DNA of 21,081 nt, taken from Acidimicrobiaceae bacterium. Its GTDB lineage: Bacteria > Actinomycetota > Acidimicrobiia > Acidimicrobiales > Bog-793. Within the stretch, counting starts at the first letter, position 1. Each line of letters opens with the position of its first letter. The notes under the pieces are model-generated. The model was not told where the DNA came from. It searched no databases and worked only from the letters and a program-made list of their open reading frames with translations. Positions 1,706-20,146 of the stretch are shown piece by piece. Location: contig PLDN01000119.1 of the NCBI GenBank assembly GCA_003136185.1, forward strand, positions 44,598 to 65,678. The letters are read 5' to 3'. A program made the position numbers and the translations under genes.

Positions 1706-2464
1706 ATGTATGGCGTGACCGCGGCAACACCCCTCTTGCAGGTCGACGACCTTCACGTCGAAGTCGAAGGCTTCGAGATCCTGCGCGGCGTCGACCTCAC
1801 CCTCCCGGTCGGCGAGCTGCATGCCGTCATGGGCCCGAATGGCTCGGGCAAGTCGACGCTCGCCAACACGATCGCCGGCAGCCCCGGCTACACCGTGACG
1901 AAGGGCCGAGTCCTCTACCAGGGCGAGGACGTCACGTCGTGGCCGGTTGACGTTCGGGCGAAGGCGGGGATGTTTCTCGCGTTCCAGTACCCCGAAGAGA
2001 TCCCGGGCGTCCGCGTCTCGCAGTTCCTCCGTCAGGCCGTCTCCGCACGACAAGGCACCGACATCTCGGCCCTCGAGGTCCGCGTGTCACTCATGGAGTG
2101 GATGAAGCGTTTGGAGATGGATGAGAGTTTTGCTTCGCGCTACTTGAACGAGGGCTTCTCGGGCGGCGAGAAGAAACGCAACGAGATCCTCCAAATGGCC
2201 CTCCTCTCGCCGGACCTGGCGGTGCTCGACGAGACAGACTCCGGGCTCGACGTCGACGCTCTGCGGGTGGTCGCGCAGGGCGTGAGAGAGGTGCGTGCCG
2301 AGAAGCCTGAGATGAGCCTCCTCCTCGTCACCCACTATCGCCGGATCCTCGACGAGCTCAAGCCGGAGAAGGTGCATGTGCTCGTCGCTGGACGGATCGT
2401 CGAGACCGGCGGGCCCGAGCTGGCCGAGCGCCTCGACACCGAGGGATACGAGGGCCTCGGCTGA
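1706..2464 (+). CDS. sufC: Fe-S cluster assembly ATPase SufC
   Basis: 252 aa with Walker A GPNGSGKST, the ABC signature FSGGEKKRNEILQ and Walker B LAVLDETDSGLD; the protein resembles SufC end to end. The start could be ATG 1706 or GTG 1715, and the RBS is weak. Confidence 0.9.
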   Translation: MYGVTAATPLLQVDDLHVEVEGFEILRGVDLTLPVGELHAVMGPNGSGKSTLANTIAGSPGYTVTKGRVLYQGEDVTSWPVDVRAKAGMFLAFQYPEEIPGVRVSQFLRQAVSARQGTDISALEVRVSLMEWMKRLEMDESFASRYLNEGFSGGEKKRNEILQMALLSPDLAVLDETDSGLDVDALRVVAQGVREVRAEKPEMSLLLVTHYRRILDELKPEKVHVLVAGRIVETGGPELAERLDTEGYEGLG

Positions 2465-3708
2465 TGGAGGAGCTCGACCCGGTCGCGCTCCGCAAGGAGT
2501 TCCCGCTCCTCGAGACGCGCCGACGACCTGACGGGAAGCGGCTCGTCTACCTCGACTCGGCCTCGTCCTCCCAGCGCCCCTACCAGGTGCTCGAGGCGAT
2601 GGACACGTACTACTCGACGACGCACGCCAACGTCCACCGCGGCGTGTACGCGATCGCAGAAGAGGCCACGCGTCAGTTCGAGGAGGCCCGCGCCAAGGTC
2701 GGCCGTTTCGTCGGCGCACCGAATCCGGCAACCGAGATCGTCTTCACGAAGAACGCCACCGAGGCGCTCAACCTCGTCGCGCATTCCTATGGGCGCGGGC
2801 GCCTTGGAATGGGCAAGGCCGTCCTTTTGACCGAGATGGAGCATCACGCCAACCTCGTCCCGTGGCTCATGCTGGCCGGCGAGCGCGGGACCGAACTGCG
2901 GTACCTGCCCATCACCGACTCCTACCAGCTCGACCTCTCAGACCTGGACAAGCTCGTCGACGGCGCCGGCGTGGTCGCAGTCTCGGCCATGTCGAACGTC
3001 CTCGGCACCGTGAACGACCTCCGCCCGATCGTCGAGGCGGCGCACGCTGCTGGGGCCGTCGTCGTCGTCGACGCCTCGCAGCTCGTTCCGCACCGGGTGG
3101 TGGACGTGGCTGCGATCGGTGCCGACTTCGTCGCCTTCACGGGGCACAAGATGCTCGGGCCGACCGGCATCGGCGTCCTCTGGGGGCGGGAGGGGTTGTT
3201 GGAGGAAATGCCGCCGTTTCTTGGCGGGGGCGAGATGATCCGAGATGTGCGCCTCGACGGGTTCACGACGAACGACATCCCTTGGAAGTTCGAGGCCGGT
3301 ACGCCGCCGATCGCCGAGGCCATCGGTCTCGGGGCGGCAGTCGACTATCTCGAGTCGGTCGGGCGCGAGGCCATCGCCGCCCACGAGCGGGCGCTGACCT
3401 ACCAGGCGATCGAGCTGTTGACCGACCGCCACGGAGACGACATCCGGATCTTCGGCCCTGGGCCGGACGACCCCAACCGCGGCGGTGTGATCTCGTTCGC
3501 CTATCGCGACATCCACCCGCACGACCTCGCGCAGGTGCTCGACTCATCGGGTGTGTGCGTGCGCGCCGGCCACCACTGCGCGAAGCCGCTCATGCGTCGC
3601 CTCGGCGTGTCGGCGACCGCTCGAGCCTCGCTATACCTGTACAACGACGAGGAAGACGTGACCGCCTTGTCCGACGCGCTCGCCAAAGCCGGCGAGTTCT
3701 TCGGCTGA
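2464..3708 (+). CDS. sufS: Cysteine desulfurase SufS (class II aminotransferase, PLP-dependent)
   Basis: 414 aa with the PLP-lysine region FVAFTGHKMLGPTGIGVLWGR and the catalytic-cysteine region RAGHHCAKPL. Its ATG overlaps the sufC stop (TGATG), which suggests translational coupling. Confidence 0.9.
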   Translation: MEELDPVALRKEFPLLETRRRPDGKRLVYLDSASSSQRPYQVLEAMDTYYSTTHANVHRGVYAIAEEATRQFEEARAKVGRFVGAPNPATEIVFTKNATEALNLVAHSYGRGRLGMGKAVLLTEMEHHANLVPWLMLAGERGTELRYLPITDSYQLDLSDLDKLVDGAGVVAVSAMSNVLGTVNDLRPIVEAAHAAGAVVVVDASQLVPHRVVDVAAIGADFVAFTGHKMLGPTGIGVLWGREGLLEEMPPFLGGGEMIRDVRLDGFTTNDIPWKFEAGTPPIAEAIGLGAAVDYLESVGREAIAAHERALTYQAIELLTDRHGDDIRIFGPGPDDPNRGGVISFAYRDIHPHDLAQVLDSSGVCVRAGHHCAKPLMRRLGVSATARASLYLYNDEEDVTALSDALAKAGEFFG

Positions 3709-3742
3709 GACTGCCAACTCGCTCAAGGAGAGCCCCGCCACC

Positions 3743-4246
3743 ATGTCAGGCCTTGAAGACCTCTACCGTGAGATCATCCTCGACCACTACCGGTCACCGA
3801 GGAACCGTGGCGAGCTGCCGGTCCCACCCGCCCAGAGGGTCGAGGGGTTCAACCCGCTCTGCGGGGACGAGGTCGTCGTCTTCCTCGAGTTCGCCGACGG
3901 AGTCGTGAAGGACGTGAAGATCGCCGGCCAAGGGTGCTCGATCAGCCAGTCGTCTGCCTCGATGATGTCGGCCGCGGTGAAGGGCAAGTCGATCGAGGAA
4001 GCCCGTCAGCTCATCTCGTCTTTCAAGGCGATGATGTCGATCCACGAGCAGGCGATCGGCGGAGACGGCAGCGATGGCGAACGGGCCGAGGCCAACATCC
4101 CGCCCGACGGGCTCGGCGAGCTTGCCGCCCTGCAGGGCGTCGTGAAGTTCCCAGTGCGGATCAAGTGCGCCACCCTCTCGTGGAACACGCTCGCACAGGC
4201 GCTCGACGAGGCGACAGCGGGCGTCGCAGCCGACGGCGCGGCCTGA
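3743..4246 (+). CDS. sufU: SUF-system Fe-S scaffold / sulfurtransferase SufU (NifU/IscU-like)
   Basis: 167 aa with LYREIILDHYRSPRN, NPLCGDEV, GQGCSISQSSASMM and the C-terminal KCATLSW, the conserved Cys/Asp ligand pattern of SufU. It carries the SufU-specific insertion (GGDGSDGERAEAN). The RBS AAGGAGAG lies upstream. Confidence 0.85.
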   Translation: MSGLEDLYREIILDHYRSPRNRGELPVPPAQRVEGFNPLCGDEVVVFLEFADGVVKDVKIAGQGCSISQSSASMMSAAVKGKSIEEARQLISSFKAMMSIHEQAIGGDGSDGERAEANIPPDGLGELAALQGVVKFPVRIKCATLSWNTLAQALDEATAGVAADGAA

Positions 4247-4249
4247 GGT

Positions 4250-5101
4250 TCAGCCTCCGAAGTGGTCGTTCATGAGGCGAGTGACCACCTGAGGATGCTC
4301 GAGGGTCAACATGTGGCTGCCCTCGTCCACGTATTCGAGACGGGCGCCGGCGATGAGCCTTGCGTACTCCTCGCCGACGGCGTTCGGCACTAGCCCGTCC
4401 TTCCGCCCGACGATGACGAGCGTCGGAGCCGTGACCCGACCAAGTCGCCGCGGCATCTTCGGGTTGTGGAAGTAAGGGTTCCACCCGAGCTTTGCAGCGG
4501 CGGCCATCGACTCTAAGAACGGCCGGACCATCTCGAAGGGGACCGCGGCGATGTCTTTCGGCCCGAGCGACCCGAGCAGGTTCATACCGGCTGCCACGGG
4601 ATGCGTCTGGTCCGCGAAGACCTCGGCGGCGAGCTCGTCGAACTTGCGACCGAACAGTTCCGACATCGGTGATCCCGGGACATAAAGGCCGACGGCGTTG
4701 ATGAGGGTGAGGCTTCGGACCCGCTCGGGGTGACGCCAAGCCAGCTCGGCCGCCAGCCAACCGCCGAGGGACATGCCGGCTACGTGGGGCGGGTTGTTGG
4801 CGCCGAGACCCAAACGATCGAAAACGTCGAGCGTGTGGTAGACCGCGTCCTCGATGTCGTCGATCTGGTCGAGACCTTCTGATCCCGCAAAGCCGGGCAG
4901 CATCGGCGCGTAGACGGCATGATCGGCCGCGAGGTGGCCGAGGTACTCGGCCACCTCGTTCGAGCCTGTCTCGCCGCCGGACGAGTGCAGGTAGACGACC
5001 GGAATCCTCGAGGGGTCTCCGCCGCGAGTGAGCTGGACGGCACCGACCGCTGTCGGGAATCGCTCGGTCACGAGCTCGGTCGACGATCCGATTGCGCTCA
5101 C
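4250..5101 (-). CDS. Alpha/beta-fold hydrolase
   Basis: 283 aa with the nucleophile elbow GMSLGG (GxSxG), HSSGG in the oxyanion region and a C-terminal His (EGSHML). The GTG start at 5101 overlaps the stop of the upstream LLM gene (GTGA). The gene is convergent with sufU, only 3 nt separating the two stop codons. Confidence 0.8.
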   Translation of the reverse strand: MSAIGSSTELVTERFPTAVGAVQLTRGGDPSRIPVVYLHSSGGETGSNEVAEYLGHLAADHAVYAPMLPGFAGSEGLDQIDDIEDAVYHTLDVFDRLGLGANNPPHVAGMSLGGWLAAELAWRHPERVRSLTLINAVGLYVPGSPMSELFGRKFDELAAEVFADQTHPVAAGMNLLGSLGPKDIAAVPFEMVRPFLESMAAAAKLGWNPYFHNPKMPRRLGRVTAPTLVIVGRKDGLVPNAVGEEYARLIAGARLEYVDEGSHMLTLEHPQVVTRLMNDHFGG

Positions 5102-6264
5102 GGGTGTGCTCCCGTCGCGACTCGGCGCTCGGTGCCGGGAAAGCGCGCCCGGAGCGCGGGCGCGACCTCCGTCGCGAACAATTCGAGATTGCGGCGCGTG
5201 TCGTCTGCCGGAAGGGTTCCGAGCTGGAAGAGCCCGAGCAGGTTGCCGACCCCGAGCCGCTCGACGTTCTCGGTGAGTCGCTCGAGCACCGTCTCAGGCG
5301 AGCCGACGATGGCGTACTGGCCCTCGATCACTTCGTCCCAGTCCTCGAGGTACTCGGCAAAGGTGCCGATCCCCTTCATCATGCTTTCGAGCGAACGAAT
5401 CGAGGTATACCCAGGCGGCGAGATCGAGATCCCGGGCAGGAGTCGTTTCACGAAGTACCAGAAGTGTTTCTCGTAGCGGCGGCGAGCCTCCTCGTCGGTA
5501 TCGGCAATGAAGATCGGGACGAGCCAACCGAGCTGCAGCGGGTCGGCCTCGTAGCCCTCCTTCTCGCACGCCTCACGCATCAGGTTGAACATCCGCTCGA
5601 ATACCGAGATGTGGAAGTACGGGATACCCATGTAGGCGTAGTGATGGCGGGCGACGAACTCGAGCGTCTCGAGCGAGCCGGCGCCCGGGATCCACACCTC
5701 GGGATGGGGCTGCTGGACCGGACGCGGCCAGGAGTTCACGTACCGGATCCGGTAGTGCTTGCCGATGAACTCGAACGGGCCGGGTTCGGTCCACGCCTTG
5801 ATGATCAGGTCGTGCGCCTCGGAGAAACGCTCGCGCGCCTGAGCAGGATTGATCCCGAATGAGTAGTACTCAGGCCCACCGCCGACGACCATGCCGGCGA
5901 TCAGGCGGCCGCCCGAGATGCAGTCGATCATGGCGAACTCTTCGGCTACCCGCGTCGGCGGGTCGTAGAGCGGGAGAGCGTTGCCGACGACGGCGATCCT
6001 CACGTGGCTCGTCTGGCGGGCGAGGATCGAAGCCATCAGGTTCGGCGAAGGCATGATGCCGTAGGCGTTCTGGTGGTGCTCGTTCACGCAGACACCGTCA
6101 AAACCGAGCTCGTCGGCGTAGATCAACTCGTCGAGGTATCGGTTGTATATCTGGGTTCCGAGACCAGGGTCGAACAACTCGTTAGGACAGGTGATCCATG
6201 CTGGCCCGTCGTAATCCGACGGGAGCCCGGGGTAGGGCATCAGATGGAAGCTGAACAGTCGCAT
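5098..6264 (-). CDS. LLM-class (luciferase-like) flavin-dependent oxidoreductase, possibly F420/FMN-dependent
   Basis: 388 aa; MRLFSFHLMPYPG...ELGFDGVCVNEHHQ...IAVVGNALPLYDP... is the typical bacterial luciferase-like TIM-barrel signature. ATG at 6264 with the RBS AAGGGGGAG 8 nt upstream. Confidence 0.85.
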   Translation of the reverse strand: MRLFSFHLMPYPGLPSDYDGPAWITCPNELFDPGLGTQIYNRYLDELIYADELGFDGVCVNEHHQNAYGIMPSPNLMASILARQTSHVRIAVVGNALPLYDPPTRVAEEFAMIDCISGGRLIAGMVVGGGPEYYSFGINPAQARERFSEAHDLIIKAWTEPGPFEFIGKHYRIRYVNSWPRPVQQPHPEVWIPGAGSLETLEFVARHHYAYMGIPYFHISVFERMFNLMREACEKEGYEADPLQLGWLVPIFIADTDEEARRRYEKHFWYFVKRLLPGISISPPGYTSIRSLESMMKGIGTFAEYLEDWDEVIEGQYAIVGSPETVLERLTENVERLGVGNLLGLFQLGTLPADDTRRNLELFATEVAPALRARFPGTERRVATGAHP

Positions 6265-6297
6265 TTCTTGTCTCCCCCTTGGTCCGCCCTCACCCTA

Positions 6298-6319
6298 ACT
6301 GACAGGTCAGTCAGGTGAC
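6298..6319. promoter_or_regulatory. Overlapping palindromic operator-like site upstream of the LLM/hydrolase operon
   Basis: ACTGAC-ag-GTCAGT (6298-6311) is a perfect 6-bp inverted repeat. It overlaps GTCA-gg-TGAC (6310-6319). The site lies ~35-55 nt upstream of the LLM ATG (6264), where a promoter or operator would sit. Confidence 0.45.
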
Positions 6320-6348
6320 CGGAGCGGATTCCTTCGTGCGCTCGCATT

Positions 6349-6390
6349 CGAGGCCCGAAGCCGAAGCCCGAAGCCAAGGCCCGAAGGCCA
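6349..6390. repeat. Tandem imperfect heptamer repeat (G)CCCGAAG x4-5; on the minus-strand transcript it gives an array of C(UUCG)G tetraloop hairpins
   Basis: The plus strand reads cgaGGCCCGAAGCCGAAGCCCGAAGCCAAGGCCCGAAGGCC, immediately 3' of the kinase stop codon (6392-6394). The minus-strand RNA contains GGCCUUCGGGCC (a perfect 4-bp stem with a UUCG loop) plus three further CUUCGG units. Confidence 0.6.
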
Positions 6391-6391
6391 G

Positions 6392-7231
6392 TCAGCCTCC
6401 GACGACGAGGCCCTCGAGATCTGCCTCCAACACGACCGCCCGCCCCGACACCCCGAGGTCCGCAAGGGCCCGCTCGCCCGCGTCCCGCACGACAGCGGCA
6501 ACGCGGGCGCCGTCGCAGATCCCGAGCAGGCTCGGCCCCGCGCCGGACCAGGTGGCCACTAGGGCGCCGGCCTCCCGCAAGCGAGCGAGCAACTCCGGCG
6601 CCTCGGTAAACAACGCCGACCGTGCGTCCTGGTGCAGCCGGTCTTCCCCCGCCTCCGGCACGAGCCCTGCGCGATCGGCGAGCCCGGCGACGAGGAGGCC
6701 CATCCGCCCGAGGTTGTGGACGGCGTCGGCGAGCGGGACCTCGGCCGGCAGTACCGCGCGCGCTTGCTTTGTCTTGAGCTCCCTATCGGGGATGAGCACG
6801 ACGTAGGCCAAGCCGGGATCGAGCGGCAGGCGCCGAGCGACCGGCACGCCCTCGACCATCGCGGCGACGACGAGGCCGCCCAGCATGGAGGCGGCCGCGT
6901 TCTCGGGATGCCCGTCGACTAAGGCCGCCACCGCAAGCGGGTCCGGCGCCCCCACAGCAGCGGCCGCCGCCAAGGCGACCGCGGCCGACGAACCGAGCCC
7001 ACGCGAGACGGGAACCTGCGACCGGAGGTAGATCGCGACGTCGTCGTGACCGAGCACCTGCCTCACGACCACCGCCGCCAGGTGCCCGGAGTCACGTGGC
7101 AGGTCGGCCCCTTCACCGTCTGCTGTGATCTCGAGACGAGCCGCAGGCTCGACGCTGACCTCGCACCGAAGAGCCACCGCCAGCGCCAGCACGTCGTAGC
7201 CCGGCCCGAGATTGGCAGAAGACGCCGGCAC
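6392..7231 (-). CDS. thrB: GHMP-family kinase, homoserine kinase-like (ThrB-like)
   Basis: Motifs VPASSANLGPGYDVLALAV (N-terminal GHMP motif as in ThrB: APASSANxxxGFD) and PVSRGLGSSAAVALAAAAA (PxGSGLGSSAA ATP-binding loop). The ORF track extends to 7414, but its first 61 codons are R/G-rich junk overlapping the upstream gene. GTG at 7231 (V62) gives a 279-aa product that starts just before the conserved motif and 27 nt after the upstream stop. Confidence 0.6.
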   Translation of the reverse strand: MPASSANLGPGYDVLALAVALRCEVSVEPAARLEITADGEGADLPRDSGHLAAVVVRQVLGHDDVAIYLRSQVPVSRGLGSSAAVALAAAAAVGAPDPLAVAALVDGHPENAAASMLGGLVVAAMVEGVPVARRLPLDPGLAYVVLIPDRELKTKQARAVLPAEVPLADAVHNLGRMGLLVAGLADRAGLVPEAGEDRLHQDARSALFTEAPELLARLREAGALVATWSGAGPSLLGICDGARVAAVVRDAGERALADLGVSGRAVVLEADLEGLVVGG

Positions 7232-11690: not shown

Positions 11691-14087
11691 TCAGGAGCCC
11701 GCGTGGCGATCGTGGCGCGCCGCTAGCCCGTGCGAGACGGCGTACCTCGTCGCCTCCACCCGGCTGCGGATGTCGAGCTTGGCGTAGATGTTGGCGAGGT
11801 GCCGCTCGACGGTGCCCACGCTCAGGTGCAGGCGCGCTGCGATCTCTTTGTTGCTCGATCCCGCCGCGACTAGCCCGAGCACCTCTGCCTGGCGAGGCGT
11901 CAGCCTGTCGGGCAGCGCCACGACCGTGAGCTCGCCGAGCTCTCCGAGCGCGGCCCGGGCGGCCGCCAACCCCTGGGTGTTGCCCGTCTCGGCTGCGAGC
12001 GACTCGGCCTCACGCAGGTGCTTGGCGGCGTCCTCGAGCTGTCCGAGCTGGTGCAACGCGCCGCTGAGCCCGATCAGCGCGTTCACGACGTCGTGCGCGT
12101 GCCCGCCTTCCCGGTAGACGACCACGGCTGTCTGGTAATACCCCGCAGCCCCGGACCAGTCCTGACGGCTGGCGCACAGGTCGCCCTGGTTGCATCGAAT
12201 GGTGCCGATCAGTTGACGGTTGTCGAGCTCGTGGGCGAGCGCTCCCGCCTCTGCCAGCGCCCGAGCCGCCATCTCGGGCAAACCGGTGCGGATCAGCACG
12301 TCGGAGAGATTGGCGAGCCCGATAGCGACTGAACGCGGGTCGCCGAGCTGGCGCTTGATGACGAGGGCCTGCTCGAACAGCTCACGAGCCGCAATGAGGT
12401 CGTCGTCGTCCAGCGCCAAGAGAGCAAGGTTGTTGAGCGCGACGGACACCCCGCGGCGGTCGCTCATCGCGTCGCGCAGCTCCATCGCGACCTGGAAGTT
12501 GCGACGTGCGGCGTCGCGGTCGCCGAGGTAGCGGTGAGCAGAGCCGAGCACCGTCGCGGCGAAGGCTGCCAACTCCCGGCGCCCGAGGCTCTGGAAGATG
12601 CCGAGAGAGACAGTCGCCTGGCGGACCGCATCGGCGTAGTCGCCGTTCTCGGCCGCGAGCACGGCGGCGGCGCTGAGGCCGTGGGCGACCGTCTCGTCGC
12701 GGCGGCGACCGGCCGCCTGCAGGAACGTACGCAGCCATCCGCGCCCGACCGTCAGCCGCCCGCACATCAGCCACCAGCGCCACAGGCGGGCGCTCATCTC
12801 GAGTCCGAGATCGGGATCGCCCTCCTCCTCGGCCCACCAAAGGGCGAGCTCGAGGTCGGGATTGGCCGCGTCCATCCGGACCGCCCACTGCGTGCTCTCG
12901 CTGCCGGCGAGGCCGTCCTCGCTGCCGCGGGCGAGCTCGGCGAAGTGCTCGGCGTGCCTACGCCGTAGTTCAGGTCCCTCGTCGGCCGCCGGCGCCAAAC
13001 CGGCGACGTAGACACGCACCGTGTCGAGCATCGTGAAGCGCGCCTGGCCGCTCTCGTGCTTGGCCACCAGGAAGGACGAGTCGACCAGTTCCCGCAGTAG
13101 CGAGGCGACCTCGTGAGCATCGACGGCCGCGACCGCCTGCGCATCGTCGATCGTGAACGCCCCTGCGAACGTGCTGAGCGCGGGAAGGAGTCGCTGCACA
13201 GTAGGACCGAGCAGGGCGTAGCTCTGCGCGGCGACCGACTCCAACGTCCGACTGGCCTCCGAACCGGGAGCAGCGGGCGCCGAGGCGATCAGCGTGTCAC
13301 GGCGGGCGGCTATCTCCCCGATCGAGAGCGTCCCCACCCACCCGGCGATCAACTCGATCGCAAGCGGGAGCCCGTCGAGCCGGCGGCACAGCTCGCCAGC
13401 CAGGCGCTGGTCGTCCCGCCCGGCGGCCAGGTCGGGCAGCCGCTCCCTCGCACGGGTAAGGAAAAGCTGTACTGCATCGGCGCTGTCGAGTTGGGCCGCC
13501 GACGCCCCGACAGGGGGGACGGCGAGCGGGGGGACGACGAACGAGGCCTCTCCCGCGACACCGAGCACCCGCCGGCTCGTCACTACGATCCGAAGGCCCG
13601 GTGCTGCCGAGAGCAAGCCTCTGACAAGGTCGGCTACCTCGTCGCGGAGCTGCTCGGCTCCGTCCAGCACCAGCACCTGCGCGGTCCCGACGAGCGCCTC
13701 GGCGATTGCCTCGTTCGTCGGGACGTCCGGTCGGTCACGGACGCGGAGGGCGGCAGCGACCGCAGCGCTCAGGAACGCCGCGCCCCGAATCGGCTCGAGC
13801 GCCACGAACGTCACCGGCAGGCCGAGCTCACTGCCTCGGATCGCTTCGAGAGCGAGGCGGGTCTTGCCGACACCGCCTGGGCCCGTGAGGCACACGAGAC
13901 GGTTGCGGGTTAGCAGCTCACCGAGGGCCGCCAGCTCGGCGGCTCGCCCGACGAAGCTCGACAGCGGCCAAGGCAACGACCCTCCGCCGGGCTCGCCAGC
14001 TGCCGAGCTATCCGACCCTCCGGCCGGCTCGGCCGGCATCGATCGCGCCGCCGCTGGCGCCGAACCAGCCGCATGCTCCGCCTCCAA
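11691..14087 (-). CDS. Large ATP-binding LuxR-family transcriptional regulator (STAND/NB-ARC-like ATPase + TPR repeats + C-terminal LuxR HTH)
   Basis: 798 aa. It has the P-loop LVCLTGPGGVGKTRLA. A central region of TPR-like repeats follows (LANLSDV..., ALNNLALLAL...). The C-terminus, LTPRQAEVLGLVAAGSSNKEIAARLHLSVGTVERHLANIYAKLDIRSRVEA, is a LuxR/GerE-type HTH. The track start at 14087 is TTG; an alternative ATG lies at 14039. Confidence 0.8.
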   Translation of the reverse strand: MEAEHAAGSAPAAARSMPAEPAGGSDSSAAGEPGGGSLPWPLSSFVGRAAELAALGELLTRNRLVCLTGPGGVGKTRLALEAIRGSELGLPVTFVALEPIRGAAFLSAAVAAALRVRDRPDVPTNEAIAEALVGTAQVLVLDGAEQLRDEVADLVRGLLSAAPGLRIVVTSRRVLGVAGEASFVVPPLAVPPVGASAAQLDSADAVQLFLTRARERLPDLAAGRDDQRLAGELCRRLDGLPLAIELIAGWVGTLSIGEIAARRDTLIASAPAAPGSEASRTLESVAAQSYALLGPTVQRLLPALSTFAGAFTIDDAQAVAAVDAHEVASLLRELVDSSFLVAKHESGQARFTMLDTVRVYVAGLAPAADEGPELRRRHAEHFAELARGSEDGLAGSESTQWAVRMDAANPDLELALWWAEEEGDPDLGLEMSARLWRWWLMCGRLTVGRGWLRTFLQAAGRRRDETVAHGLSAAAVLAAENGDYADAVRQATVSLGIFQSLGRRELAAFAATVLGSAHRYLGDRDAARRNFQVAMELRDAMSDRRGVSVALNNLALLALDDDDLIAARELFEQALVIKRQLGDPRSVAIGLANLSDVLIRTGLPEMAARALAEAGALAHELDNRQLIGTIRCNQGDLCASRQDWSGAAGYYQTAVVVYREGGHAHDVVNALIGLSGALHQLGQLEDAAKHLREAESLAAETGNTQGLAAARAALGELGELTVVALPDRLTPRQAEVLGLVAAGSSNKEIAARLHLSVGTVERHLANIYAKLDIRSRVEATRYAVSHGLAARHDRHAGS

Positions 14088-17244: not shown

Positions 17245-18630
17245 ATGTTGTTCTGGCACGTTCCTGCCCCTGACGAGGCTTTGTTGATCTCCGGTAGCAA
17301 GCACAGAGATGGCGCGACCCAGTTCCACGTCGTGACCGGCCACGGTTCGTTCGTGATGCCTATAAAGCAGAAGGGTCGGGTGTTGTCACTCGCGCTGCGA
17401 GAAGCCGAGCTCCTCGAGGAGTGTGTCACGACTCAGGGGATCCCGCTCAAGGTCCGTGCAGTCGCCGTGTTCAAGATCGGTGATGACCAGGTGTCGATCG
17501 CGAACGCCGCGAGGCGTTTCTTGGCTGAGCAGGACAAGATGGAAGAGCTCTGTGGCCGCATCTTCGCAGGGCACCTCCGCTCGATCGTCGGCAGCCTGAC
17601 CGTCGAGGAGATCATCCGTGAGCGCGACAAGGTCGCGCAAGAGGTGAAGGACGGCTGCCATCCCGAGATGGAGAAGCTCGGCATCGTCGTCGACAGCCTG
17701 CAGATCCAAGAGATCGAGGACCCGACCGGGTACATCCGCAACATCGCCGCTCCGCACGCCGCCGCAGTCGCGAGCCAAGCCCGCATCGCGGCGGCCATCA
17801 GGGACCAGGAGGCTGCCGAGAAGGAGCAGCAGGCCGCTCGGGCGAAGAACCAATTCGAGCGCGACACTGCCGTGCAGCGCGCCAAGATCGAAGCCGAGGT
17901 GCAAGAGGCGCAGGCTCGTGCAGCCCAGTCCGGCCCGTTGGCCGAGGCAAAGGCGTCACAGGACGTCATCGCCGAGCAGACCTCGCTCGCCGAACGCCAG
18001 GCGGGCCTCACCGACAAGCGGCTCGAGTCAGAGGTTCGCCGCCCTGCCGACGCCGAGGCCTACAAGCAGCGGACGCTGGCCGACGCTGCCCGCGACGCCA
18101 TGAAGGCGAACACCGAGGCCGAATCGAACAAGCAGCGGATGATGGCTGAATCTGCCCGTGACGCTCTGTTGTTGTCGACCGAGGGCGAGGCGGGGCGGAA
18201 GAAGTCGCTCGCCGAAGCCGATGCGAAGGCCCGCGTCGTGTCGGCTCAAGCCGAGTCCGAAGCGGCGAAGACCACCGCCGACGGGAGCGCCTACGCGCAA
18301 CGCACGGTCGCGCAGGCCGAGGCCGATGCGATCAACGCCCGCGCCGACGCCCTCGCCGGCGAGAACCAGGTGCTGATCGCGGCCAACAAGCTCGTCGAGA
18401 TGCTGCCCCAGCTCGTCGAGGCCGCAGCCGCCGGCATCAACGGATCGAACCTCACGGTGCTGAACGGCTCGGCGGGCGTTAACGACGTCGCCGTCGGCCT
18501 CGTCGCGCAGGGGATGACGATCTACGACACCTTGCGGAAGTCTCTCCAGACCGGCTCGCTACACGGAGTTGCGGCGGTCAACGGGGCCACCCCTGAAGGT
18601 GCCGCGGCCGAGGTGGTGAAGGGCGCTTAG
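17245..18630 (+). CDS. Flotillin-like SPFH/Band-7 domain protein (FloT/YuaG-like)
   Basis: 461 aa. An N-terminal SPFH domain (...RVLSLALREAELLEECVTTQGIPLKVRAVAVFKIGDD...RDKVAQEV...) is followed by a long Ala/Glu/Gln-rich coiled-coil typical of flotillins and a C-terminal region. RBS GAGGTGAG upstream. Confidence 0.8.
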   Translation: MLFWHVPAPDEALLISGSKHRDGATQFHVVTGHGSFVMPIKQKGRVLSLALREAELLEECVTTQGIPLKVRAVAVFKIGDDQVSIANAARRFLAEQDKMEELCGRIFAGHLRSIVGSLTVEEIIRERDKVAQEVKDGCHPEMEKLGIVVDSLQIQEIEDPTGYIRNIAAPHAAAVASQARIAAAIRDQEAAEKEQQAARAKNQFERDTAVQRAKIEAEVQEAQARAAQSGPLAEAKASQDVIAEQTSLAERQAGLTDKRLESEVRRPADAEAYKQRTLADAARDAMKANTEAESNKQRMMAESARDALLLSTEGEAGRKKSLAEADAKARVVSAQAESEAAKTTADGSAYAQRTVAQAEADAINARADALAGENQVLIAANKLVEMLPQLVEAAAAGINGSNLTVLNGSAGVNDVAVGLVAQGMTIYDTLRKSLQTGSLHGVAAVNGATPEGAAAEVVKGA

Positions 18631-18651
18631 GCGCGCCGGCGCTACCTGCCC

Positions 18652-20109
18652 TCACGAGAACGCGATCGCCTCGCTCACCGAGTCGTGCGGGTCGTCCTCA
18701 TTTTGTGCCAGCACCTCACATCGTGTGGTCGTGTCGCAGTTGAGTGTGCTGCTCGGAATGGCCTTCGACACGTGCAAGCCGGTGTCTCCTGCCCCCGTGG
18801 CGTCGGCCGTCACCGCGCTTACCTCGAAGCAGGCGAGTTCGCCGGCTAGCGATGCGCATTCGGCCACCTCTAGCTGCGCACCGGCAGGGAAGTTGCTCAC
18901 GGCAACCGAGATGATGCTGCCGTCGCTGATACCCGTCGCGGGAGTCACCGATATGCCGGGCACGACGGGGGACCCCGAGGCGTTGAACGAGATCGAGCGG
19001 CTCGTCGAGTACCACCCGTCCAAGTCGTCCTGCACGAAGATGTCACACCGTGCCGTGTCACAACTCACCTTCGCGCTCGGGGCCTCCAACACGGGGAACT
19101 GAATGCTGACGTCTCCGGCGGAGGTTGCGTTGGTGTACACCAAATCGGGTGCGCAGGCCGCCACGCCGGCCACGCACTCCTGCACGGTCACCTCGTCGTC
19201 GGGTGCAAAGCCTGACACCGTCACGGTCACGATCTGGCCGTCGACCAGACCAGACCGCGTGCTGACTGTCTCGCTCGGCGAGAGCGCCTTGGCCTTCGGA
19301 TTGAAAGAGATGGGAGCAGAAATCGCAGACCCAGGCACGCCGGAGTACGTCGTCAAGGCACACCCGGGCGACTTCTCGCAGCTGACGGTCACCTGCCCAT
19401 GGCCGCTCGGATGTTCGATGTGGCTGCTGACGCGATAGGTGCCCGAGCTCTGACCCCTGGCGTTCGTCTGGAGGAAGGCGTCGTATTGGCGAAAGTCACA
19501 CTGATTGGTTGTCGGCTGGCCAACCGCCTCACACTCCCTCAGCTGAAAGCTGGAATCCGGTCTGAAGTTTTTGCCTGAGACAGTGACCGTCTCGTTCGGG
19601 GTCAAGTTCTTCGAGCTCGACAACGACAGGGTCGGGACGAGCGGCTTGGCCTTCGGGTTGAACGAGATCTTCTCGCCCGTCGACTGTCTCGCTGGGTCGA
19701 CGGCGTCCCCGGCTGCCACGATACAGCCCGGCGTCTTCACGCAATTGATCGTCGTCGAGCCGACGACGATGTCCTGGGAGACCTGGAAAGGCTCCGAGAA
19801 TGACCCAGTCGCTGAGGTGTCGAAAGTCGTCGCGAACTGCGTGTTCTCACATTGCGCCTCGGCCTTCGCCCCCGGCTCGCACTCGAGGATGCCCACATAG
19901 GTCTTTTTCAGAAAGTGGTAGCCGTGGACCGTGATTATCTGGCCGGACGCGAGGTTGGTGGCCTGACTCAGGTGGAGGGATGCCTTCGAGCTCGTCACCG
20001 CCTTAGCTGCCTCGGCTGCCTGCGCCAACTGAGCGCTCGTCGCCACCGACGACAGCGCCAGCAGTACTGCCACTACCCCGCCAATCTTGTATCGCGAGCT
20101 CTTCCGCAC
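18652..20109 (-). CDS. Secreted protein with four tandem neocarzinostatin-fold (NCS apoprotein-like) domains
   Basis: 485 aa. The N-terminal signal peptide MRKSSRYKIGGVVAVLLALSSVATSAQLAQA is followed by four repeats of ~110 aa. Each has the pattern LxxG(Q)xVTVxGxxF...ECx(8-12)C...(D)xxG.F...(I/V)xCx(5-6)C...ISF(N). The two Cys pairs with spacings of ~10 and ~5 mirror the C37-C47 and C88-C93 disulfides of neocarzinostatin/macromomycin/actinoxanthin apoproteins. ISFNPKAK linkers join the domains. GTG start at 20109 with the RBS GGGGGGAGAGGA. Confidence 0.7.
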   Translation of the reverse strand: MRKSSRYKIGGVVAVLLALSSVATSAQLAQAAEAAKAVTSSKASLHLSQATNLASGQIITVHGYHFLKKTYVGILECEPGAKAEAQCENTQFATTFDTSATGSFSEPFQVSQDIVVGSTTINCVKTPGCIVAAGDAVDPARQSTGEKISFNPKAKPLVPTLSLSSSKNLTPNETVTVSGKNFRPDSSFQLRECEAVGQPTTNQCDFRQYDAFLQTNARGQSSGTYRVSSHIEHPSGHGQVTVSCEKSPGCALTTYSGVPGSAISAPISFNPKAKALSPSETVSTRSGLVDGQIVTVTVSGFAPDDEVTVQECVAGVAACAPDLVYTNATSAGDVSIQFPVLEAPSAKVSCDTARCDIFVQDDLDGWYSTSRSISFNASGSPVVPGISVTPATGISDGSIISVAVSNFPAGAQLEVAECASLAGELACFEVSAVTADATGAGDTGLHVSKAIPSSTLNCDTTTRCEVLAQNEDDPHDSVSEAIAFS

Positions 20110-20128: not shown

Positions 20129-20146
20129 GCGTCCCTCGAGGGACGC
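20129..20146. promoter_or_regulatory. 18-bp perfect palindrome GCGTCCC-TCGA-GGGACGC immediately 5' of the RBS of the 4xNCS gene
   Basis: The sequence is exactly self-complementary, a 7-bp GC-rich stem with a TCGA centre. On the minus-strand mRNA it is directly followed by GGGGGGAGAGGAUUAGGCC-GUG (the SD plus start). No U-tract follows, so it is not an intrinsic terminator. Confidence 0.45.

Follow-up and report, generated by a model that had tools for sequence, protein, structure and literature searches.

The TetR-family regulator RutR of Escherichia coli recognizes the box TTGACCAnnTGGTCAA, where A4 and T13 are the most important positions, and the RutR chromatin immunoprecipitation table also holds the NemR (ydhM) site TAGACCGACTGGTCTA (PMC2475637). 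The TetR-type regulators McbR and AcnR of Corynebacterium glutamicum have the operators TAGAC-N6-GTCTA and CAGNACnnncGTACTG, respectively (PMC2723105), and the MarR-type regulator PcaV of Streptomyces coelicolor has TCAGxxxxCTGA operators at or near the transcription start (PMC3616709). Here, we describe an 18-bp dyad, [A/C][C/T]TGA[C/T]-N6-[G/A]TCA[A/G][G/T], which lies upstream of a gene for a luciferase-like monooxygenase (LLM) in a stretch of 21,081 nt from an Acidimicrobiaceae genome (contig PLDN01000119.1), referred to below as the window. A comparison of orthologous promoters suggests that the dyad is probably the operator of a trans-encoded homodimeric helix-turn-helix (HTH) regulator, most likely a repressor resembling the TetR family. 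This would be an ordinary repressor–operator design, in a new instance from a poorly studied lineage.

The RutR box has the same TGA-N8-TCA geometry, set in a 16-bp palindrome. This spacing is kept in all 25 of the dyads that we aligned, and A5 and T14 of the dyad, which are equally invariant, correspond to A4 and T13 of RutR. The site of locus L037 (TTGACCGATTGGTCAA) matches 13 of the 14 specified positions of the RutR box and that of L032/L110 (TTGACCGACCGGTCAA) matches 12, the range for sites of the L032/L036/L037 type being 11–13. The rut operon (rutABCDEFG) likewise starts with an LLM gene and encodes an alpha/beta hydrolase (RutA and RutD). However, RutA shares only 25% identity with the LLM of the window, the RutA model gives it 34 bits against a cut-off of 498, the RutD model gives the hydrolase 44 bits against a cut-off of 238, and the window holds no rutB, C, E, F or G. 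The E. coli rutR gene adjoins rutA, whereas no TetR gene lies next to the LLM gene; RutR sites are often far upstream of their target genes or inside them, whereas the LLM dyad is always in the core promoter. By analogy, the dyad may work like a RutR-type operator while not being a member of a Rut system.

The McbR and AcnR operators come from the same phylum, share the 5-N6-5 (6-N4-6) palindrome layout and are repressor operators at promoters (PMC2723105), but their half-sites are TAGAC or CAGNAC, compared with (C/T)TGA(C/T) in the dyad. McbR serves a many-site regulon of sulphur metabolism, whereas in the DNA examined the dyad occurs only at the LLM promoter. PcaV has half-sites of the CTGA/TCAG type and represses a catabolic operon that includes an alpha/beta hydrolase of the enol-lactonase type (PMC3616709). 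Its order, TCAG-N4-CTGA, is the opposite of the CTGA(Y)-N6-(R)TCAG of the dyad, the CTGA-N8-TCAG spacing differs, and pcaV adjoins its target, whereas the LLM gene has no MarR gene nearby. Generic TetR operators are palindromes of 15–18 bp over the core promoter; the dyad adjoins the -10 element or covers the -35 region. The CRP and FNR boxes, TGTGA-N6-TCACA and TTGAT-N4-ATCAA, usually lie at -41.5 or -61.5. They have the core triplets TGA and TCA in common with the dyad, but their spacing is TGA-N6-TCA rather than TGA-N8-TCA, and these usual activator positions contrast with a dyad set against the -10. A literature search for the strings TGAC-N6-GTCA and TTGAC-N6-GTCAA gave no match.

A promoter-specific dyad upstream of LLM orthologues

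The comparison drew on 160 loci with LLM relatives from GTDB genomes and JGI metagenomes, to which ten loci were added, namely nine contexts of 13–21 kb found by exact-protein look-ups and the E. coli rut region, giving 170 in total. The promoter set consisted of 87 distinct Acidimicrobiales-type LLM upstream regions from metagenome-assembled genomes and metagenomes, and dyads were rated by a simple weighting scheme whose top score is 9. The unit conserved in this set was the 18-bp dyad of outer half-sites. The maximum score was reached in 23 distinct LLM upstream regions and a score of at least 8.5 in 28–29, while the background of 581,563 positions not upstream of LLM in the same loci contained no site at 9 and two at ≥8.5. 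The dyad is therefore specific to the LLM promoter; the only other top-scoring site in all 170 loci lies within a planctomycete gene. The stricter string TGAC-N6-GTCA had 11 matches in 540 kb, six or seven of them in LLM promoters.

Several features indicate that the recurrence of the dyad does not reflect one inherited block of DNA. Fourteen different N6 spacers occur across the 29 dyad-bearing promoters, which fall into three gene contexts: thrB upstream (the window type), sufBD-sufC2 directly upstream, and a divergent L,D-transpeptidase gene upstream. The flanks of the three contexts otherwise cannot be aligned. In L098 the dyad stands apart from the stop codon of the gene before it, which argues against its conservation as coding sequence. 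Sites followed closely by a -10-like sequence include CCTGAT-tgacgc-GTCAGT then TAGGTT (L002), ACTGAC-gggccc-GTCAGT then AAGGTT (L009, a perfect 20-bp palindrome), ACTGAT-tggcgc-GTCAGT then AGGGT (L084), GCTGAT-tccggc-GTCAGT then AGGGT (L145) and GTTGAC-N6-ATCAGT then AGGGT (L008 and L169). L036 has CTTGAC-cgaacg-GTCAGT then TAGCAT, L037 has CTTGAC-cgattg-GTCAAC then TAGCGT, and L038, L110, L114, L034 and L140 have TTGACC-N4-GGTCAR followed by TTACGAT or TACAGT. A large group of sufC2-adjacent promoters carries ACTGAT-tcgtca-GTCAGT (ACTGATTcgtcAATCAGT in L138).

The pattern of conserved bases fits a protein that reads two half-sites. Across the 25 aligned dyads, T3, G4, A5, T14 and C15 are each present in 24 or 25 sites and A16 in 20, while positions 2 and 17 vary independently of each other (CG 13, TG 4, CA 4, TA 4). 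The centres of the two half-sites are 10 bp apart, which is the classical arrangement for an HTH dimer. As both arms are fixed in sequence and show no covariation, the dyad looks like a putative protein-binding site rather than an RNA stem.

The site in the window and its promoter

The window has a GC content of 66%, as an actinobacterial segment, and is matched by contigs of peat and soil Acidimicrobiales metagenome-assembled genomes, such as PKXG01000119.1 of GCA_003132285.1. The gene order on the minus strand is a thrB-like GHMP kinase, a 127-nt intergenic region, the LLM and an alpha/beta hydrolase. The intergenic region in gene sense reads CC-TGAC-TGACCT-GTCA-GT then TAGGGT. The features of the locus are as follows, with coordinates of the window.

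6298..6315, minus strand: candidate 18-bp operator dyad, CCTGAC-tgacct-GTCAGT, which scores 9 of 9 and recurs before LLM orthologues
6298..6303, minus strand: promoter-proximal half-site GTCAGT (gene sense), directly against the -10; T14 25/25, C15 25/25, A16 20/25
6310..6315, minus strand: promoter-distal half-site CCTGAC (gene sense); T3 24/25, G4 25/25, A5 25/25
6304..6309, minus strand: N6 spacer tgacct (gene sense), which holds an internal TGAC; 14 spacer variants among the dyad-bearing promoters
6316..6319, minus strand: outer TGAC (as read on the plus strand) finishing GTCAggTGAC; missing in the closest relatives L001 and L002 and in all other loci, and probably incidental
6292..6297, minus strand: predicted -10 hexamer TAGGGT (TAnnnT type; ACCCTA on the plus strand), with a same-position hexamer kept in relatives
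6272..6278, minus strand: Shine-Dalgarno sequence GGGGGAG, 7 nt before the ATG, read from the sequence; a purine-rich block is present in all relatives
5098..6264, minus strand: LLM, 388 amino acids, first gene of the operon (Pfam Bac_luciferase, 1.8e-49; independent gene calls agree)
4250..5101, minus strand: alpha/beta hydrolase, 283 amino acids (Pfam); its GTG start overlaps the TGA stop of the LLM gene (GTGA)
6392..7231, minus strand: homoserine kinase-like GHMP kinase (thrB), 279 amino acids (NCBIfam thrB, 7.8e-49), the co-directional upstream neighbour, outside the regulated unit
6340..6391, minus strand: GC-rich tract of hairpins and tandem repeats, located between the thrB stop codon and the candidate operator (13-nt unit, 2.9 copies; hairpins in the predicted fold; no T-run terminator found), the probable thrB terminator region, which separates the LLM promoter from the upstream gene

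The plus strand reads ACTGACAGGTCAGT at 6298–6311 and GTCAGGTGAC at 6310–6319, and these strings are exactly as reported by the first-pass annotation, which had taken them as two adjacent palindromes with N2 spacing (TGAC-nn-GTCA at 6300–6309 and GTCA-nn-TGAC at 6310–6319). It had placed them 35–55 nt before the ATG of the LLM gene (6262–6264, where the plus strand reads CAT); the actual distance is 34–55 nt. The TAGGGT that it had proposed as the -10 is present, but adjoins the motif and does not overlap it. A repeat search found, beyond the reported palindromes, an inverted repeat at 6294–6303/6306–6315 with nine of ten positions complementary. Each 10-bp palindrome alone is statistically unremarkable: TGACNNGTCA and GTCANNTGAC occur once each in the 21-kb window, against shuffle expectations of 0.32 and 0.24, so that the evidence for a motif exceeding chance is comparative.

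The position of the dyad relative to the predicted promoter is conserved as well as its sequence. TAGGGT, TAAGGT or TAGGTT is kept at the -10 position in relatives, and in the promoters of the window and transpeptidase types the gap from the dyad to the TAnnnT hexamer is -1 to +3 nt; it is -1 to +1 nt in those of the window and L036 types. The sufC2-adjacent group has TACCAT as its hexamer, at +11 or +12 nt from a dyad that covers the -35 region. The dyad is thus centred near -21 (window type) or near -32 (sufC2-adjacent group), and the difference between these two classes is one helical turn. Helical phase is therefore kept, which would place the dyad on the same face of the DNA, inside the polymerase footprint, in both classes. 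In L114 and L110 the hexamer is only 6–8 nt before the ATG, a leaderless arrangement; leaderless transcripts are common in Actinobacteria, and this spacing supports the hexamer as a true -10. L037 has a second dyad directly downstream of its -10. These positions fit steric repression, which we infer in preference to activation.

Interpretation of the dyad and alternative explanations

In the mechanism that we favour, each recognition helix of the dimer would contact one half-site, TGA(C/T) or (G/A)TCA, the two lying in successive major grooves with their centres 10 bp apart. The bound dimer would block RNA polymerase at the core promoter of the LLM–hydrolase operon (LLM–hydrolase–MFS, with a major facilitator superfamily transporter, in most relatives), a proposal that follows from a proximal half-site adjoining the -10 and a dyad centre near -21. 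Release of the repressor would be triggered by a small-molecule ligand, for which the pathway substrate is a plausible candidate. Part of the original proposal survives in this model: the first-pass annotation had suggested a dimeric regulator of the LLM operon encoded outside the locus. The footprinting agrees with an HTH-dimer site at the LLM promoter, probably a single 18-bp N6 dyad rather than two N2 palindromes, and with a trans-encoded protein, but gives no support to a global regulon.

A number of observations weigh against this interpretation. Only 29 of the 87 orthologous promoters (approximately one-third) have a good dyad, and the nearest relative, L001, with 96% protein identity, has two core mismatches (CCTGAA-ggacct-GTCCAT). 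This weak retention suggests that selection on the dyad is not strict, or that the regulator is often lost. The site of the window itself (CTGACTGACCTGTCAG) matches the RutR box at only 8 of the 14 specified positions. A promoter scan found no E. coli-type -35/-10 pair and no recognizable -35. No regulator gene is adjacent to the LLM gene, as the first-pass annotation had stated; Pfam and NCBIfam scans of all open reading frames of the window and inspection of the flanking loci agree, and the only regulator detected in the window is of the LAL/LuxR type, 5.4 kb away. Finally, tandem half-sites are, by a rough estimate, commoner than chance, so that the dyad may also be bound in another register and the 14-bp palindrome of the window may not be wholly incidental.

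This last point bears on the alternative that the two N2-spaced palindromes are separate binding sites, occupied by two dimers or a tetramer, which we regard as improbable. ACTGACagGTCAGT (6298–6311) is a perfect 14-bp N2 palindrome, created by the TGAC inside the N6 spacer; L002 keeps TTGACgcGTCAGT, and in L001 the inner palindromy is maintained through a double change (GGACctGTCC). The tandem half-site also recurs as TGACTGAC and, mirrored, as GTCAGTCA, with a rough chance estimate of ~0.004. However, half-sites 6 bp apart would lie on different faces of the helix, an arrangement unfit for an HTH dimer. TGAC-N2-GTCA precedes the LLM gene only in the window and L002, compared with six or seven LLM promoters for the N6 form, and among the compared loci GTCAnnTGAC lies upstream of LLM in the window alone; neither palindrome is conserved. 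The internal half-site is restricted to the window, L002, L093 (TGACTGAC) and, in the mirrored form, the sufC2-adjacent group (GTCAGTCA), whereas nine loci have the N6 dyad without it (L009, L036, L037, L038, L084, L110, L114, L145 and L169). The missing -35 raises a different question, as the protein on the dyad could be an activator, or a MerR-like regulator able to remodel a promoter whose -35 is poor. We consider this unlikely, albeit less so than the N2 arrangement. MerR-family proteins sit in the spacer up to the -10, as would a protein on a dyad that is centred near -21 and fills the 18 bp before the -10, and the phase-keeping shift of 11–12 bp in the sufC2-adjacent group would suit contact with one face of the polymerase. 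Set against this, actinobacterial promoters often lack a -35. The hexamer upstream of the dyad (CGGTCA in the window) is neither TTGACA-like nor conserved as a -35 at 19–20 bp, and the dyads of MerR operators are usually longer and accompanied by a clear TTGAC -35. Neither class I nor class II activators have their sites centred at -21 or -32, and the second dyad of L037, downstream of the -10, fits repression.

It is very improbable that the dyad is a chance palindrome, or a promoter-shaped sequence that no regulator reads and in which the proximal GTCAGT is extended -10 context. Such a view could draw on the expectation of 0.2–0.3 occurrences per window for each 10-bp palindrome, on the two-thirds of orthologous promoters that do not have the full dyad, on the core bases lost in L001 and on the dyad-less L003, L004, L005, L006 and L010, which keep a proximal (G/A)TC(A/G)GT beside the -10. 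Yet the two half-sites are equally invariant, the sufC2-adjacent dyad is intact despite lying 11–12 bp from the -10, and the enrichment is extreme, with 23 sites against none in the background. We give least credence of all to a nucleic-acid hairpin, whether a terminator or attenuator of thrB or sufC2 or a structure in the 5' untranslated region (UTR). In two of the three contexts the dyad follows a gene that runs in the same direction as the LLM gene, G-U pairing would tolerate the C-to-T change in the left arm, and the stem is present in the predicted RNA fold. The invariant arms, in contrast, lack compensatory changes, and positions 2 and 17 include C-A combinations. No T-run terminator or terminator-like site was found, the fold of the intergenic region is not unusual (z-score -1.6), and no Rfam match was found at E≤1. 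Where the L,D-transpeptidase gene lies upstream, it is divergent and leaves nothing to terminate; in the window the dyad is upstream of the -10 and would be outside the LLM transcript, and a separate GC-rich hairpin tract already lies downstream of thrB.

Two known systems were also compared with promoters of the set and rejected on inspection. An extracytoplasmic function sigma factor of the SigH/SigR type (GGAAC-N-GTT) was considered for the group-3 promoters, but the spacing is 16 and not 18 nt, and the GGAA is unconserved in the other groups. An IdeR box was considered for TTAGGTTGAGG, which matches at only 9 of 19 positions.

The search for a regulator and a regulon

As no regulator is adjacent to the LLM gene, it would be encoded in trans. 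A rough phmmer search with consensus HTH sequences against 699 flanking open reading frames of the 160 loci found only two TetR genes, both beside LLM paralogues of 44% identity, and no regulator within 3 kb of the LLM orthologues. In the Pfam-annotated loci none was present within 10 kb apart from unrelated-looking ones, and in the group-3 contexts no transcription factor is encoded within 10 kb. The LAL/LuxR-type protein of the window was rejected as a candidate, as neither of the syntenic loci L169 and L170 has it, and L169 carries the dyad nonetheless.

Beyond the window, an AsnC regulator gene is found 14 kb to the left and, approximately 15 kb to the right, a pair of TetR genes, which are syntenic in L169 and L170. 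The TetR proteins resemble RutR only in the generic HTH, and were rejected as candidates: no dyad lies near their genes, and L170 has both genes but no dyad. A conserved inverted repeat of a different kind, TGAGACA-N13-TGTCTCA, is found beyond the right end of the window (L164, 7680–7712; L169, 370–400). It precedes the second of these two tandem TetR genes, which are themselves located before an AurF-like gene (a faint Pfam match). The repeat is probably the operator of the second TetR gene itself, unrelated to the LLM dyad.

Apart from the planctomycete coding match, no further top-scoring dyad of the LLM type was found in the window, in the 40 kb around it or in approximately 1 Mb of related loci, which suggests a local rather than a global site. 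Membership of a SufR regulon was rejected because the promoter of the suf operon does not carry the dyad; no dyad or inverted repeat was detected upstream of MBL-sufCSU (880–1040). The SufR motifs CAAC-N6-GTTG and ACACT-N5-TGTGA also differ from the dyad.

The LLM–hydrolase module

The LLM–hydrolase pair is kept in every locus long enough to show it, among the 160 loci and across several phyla, and the GTGA stop/start overlap that the first-pass annotation had pointed out is confirmed by the sequence and by independent gene calls. LLM identity is still 60–67% in Planctomycetota, Acidobacteriota (Blastocatellia), Binatia, Thermodesulfobacteriota and Chloroflexota (L054–L076 and L122–L133). The LLM fits no named NCBIfam subfamily, its matches being a mixture of flavin mononucleotide (FMN) and F420 families that are all far under the cut-offs. 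The nearest solved structures are of the FMN type (7bip, 2i7g, luciferase alpha, PuwE and diketocamphane monooxygenase), while F420-dependent Mer is much weaker; the F420-dependent subclass suggested in the first-pass annotation is not supported. An MFS transporter gene follows the hydrolase gene in most relatives of the window type, but not in the window. The pair is a widespread, uncharacterized two-enzyme module.

Within the Acidimicrobiales, the pair is always located inside or beside suf genes for Fe-S cluster assembly (window 1706–6264; L014, L166 and L167). The genes sufU-sufS-sufC converge on it from one side, and in many genomes sufB-sufD-(Rieske)-sufC2 is directly upstream, so that the module is bracketed by two suf clusters.

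The dyad marks the LLM–hydrolase(–MFS) module as a putative inducible unit, distinct from the neighbouring housekeeping genes thrB and suf. It offers a testable cis-regulatory handle, with an 18-bp consensus, a position and a phasing rule, for a lineage of uncultured soil and peat bacteria in which hardly any regulation has been defined by experiment. The regulator could be sought by DNA-affinity capture with the dyad, or by phylogenetic profiling of the 29 dyad-bearing against the 58 dyad-less genomes, and its ligand could point to the substrate of the pathway. As a doubtful extension, we speculate that an orphan trans regulator with RutR/NemR-like specificity might control the conserved monooxygenase–hydrolase(–MFS) module between the suf clusters. 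The pathway could then be a Rut-like ring cleavage or a Baeyer–Villiger oxidation followed by hydrolysis, with RutR-type logic either inherited or convergent, and possibly tied to sulphur or Fe-S metabolism.

Other conserved or unusual elements

Two other groups of LLM promoters have elements of their own. In eight dyad-less loci (L016, L019, L047, L052, L089, L096, L099 and L106), a block GGCACCGTCGGTCGACCGGTGACGA(A/G)GGGG with CACCG/CGGTG arms is located downstream of the TACCAT -10, ~20–60 nt before the LLM start; it could be another operator or a 5' UTR structure. The paralogues of ~44% identity (L149–L160) have the promoter ATTGACATACCG...N...AATACT...CGGTA(T/G), ~40–70 nt before the start, with arms ATACCG/CGGTAT, and a TetR gene is nearby in L151 and L160. 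This arrangement is consistent with a separate regulator–operator pair for a related enzyme.

In the divergent intergenic regions of L032/L110, L036, L037, L114, L117, L140 and L035/L111, a conserved sequence, (A/C)AGTATG(A/G), lies 30–45 nt upstream of the dyad. On the opposite strand it contains CATACT, which may be the -10 of the divergent L,D-transpeptidase gene.

Just past the thrB stop codon in the window, the 13-nt tandem repeat CGAGGCCCGAAGC (2.9 copies, 6349–6386) forms GC-rich hairpins of the GGCC-TTCG-GGCC type, probably as a T-less terminator tract. The repeat is absent from L001 and L002, which carry a single hairpin, GGCCGCTTCGGGGCC at this position in L002.

Elsewhere in the window, LAL/LuxR-type, flotillin-like and neocarzinostatin-family genes (11691–14087 and 17245–20109) are absent from L169/L170, which are otherwise syntenic (TetR-AurF-dapA-rnj-ftsK-dacB-thrB-LLM), and look like lineage-specific insertions. 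The LAL/LuxR regulator has AAA, TPR and GerE domains, and in the gene call on the matching contig, L164, there is also an XRE-type HTH at the N terminus. A protein of 485 amino acids (18652–20109, minus strand) matches the neocarzinostatin (enediyne apoprotein) domain in four stretches. A perfect 18-bp palindrome, GCGTCCCTCGAGGGACGC, is found at 20129–20146, 20–37 nt before the GTG start of this protein and just before its Shine-Dalgarno sequence.

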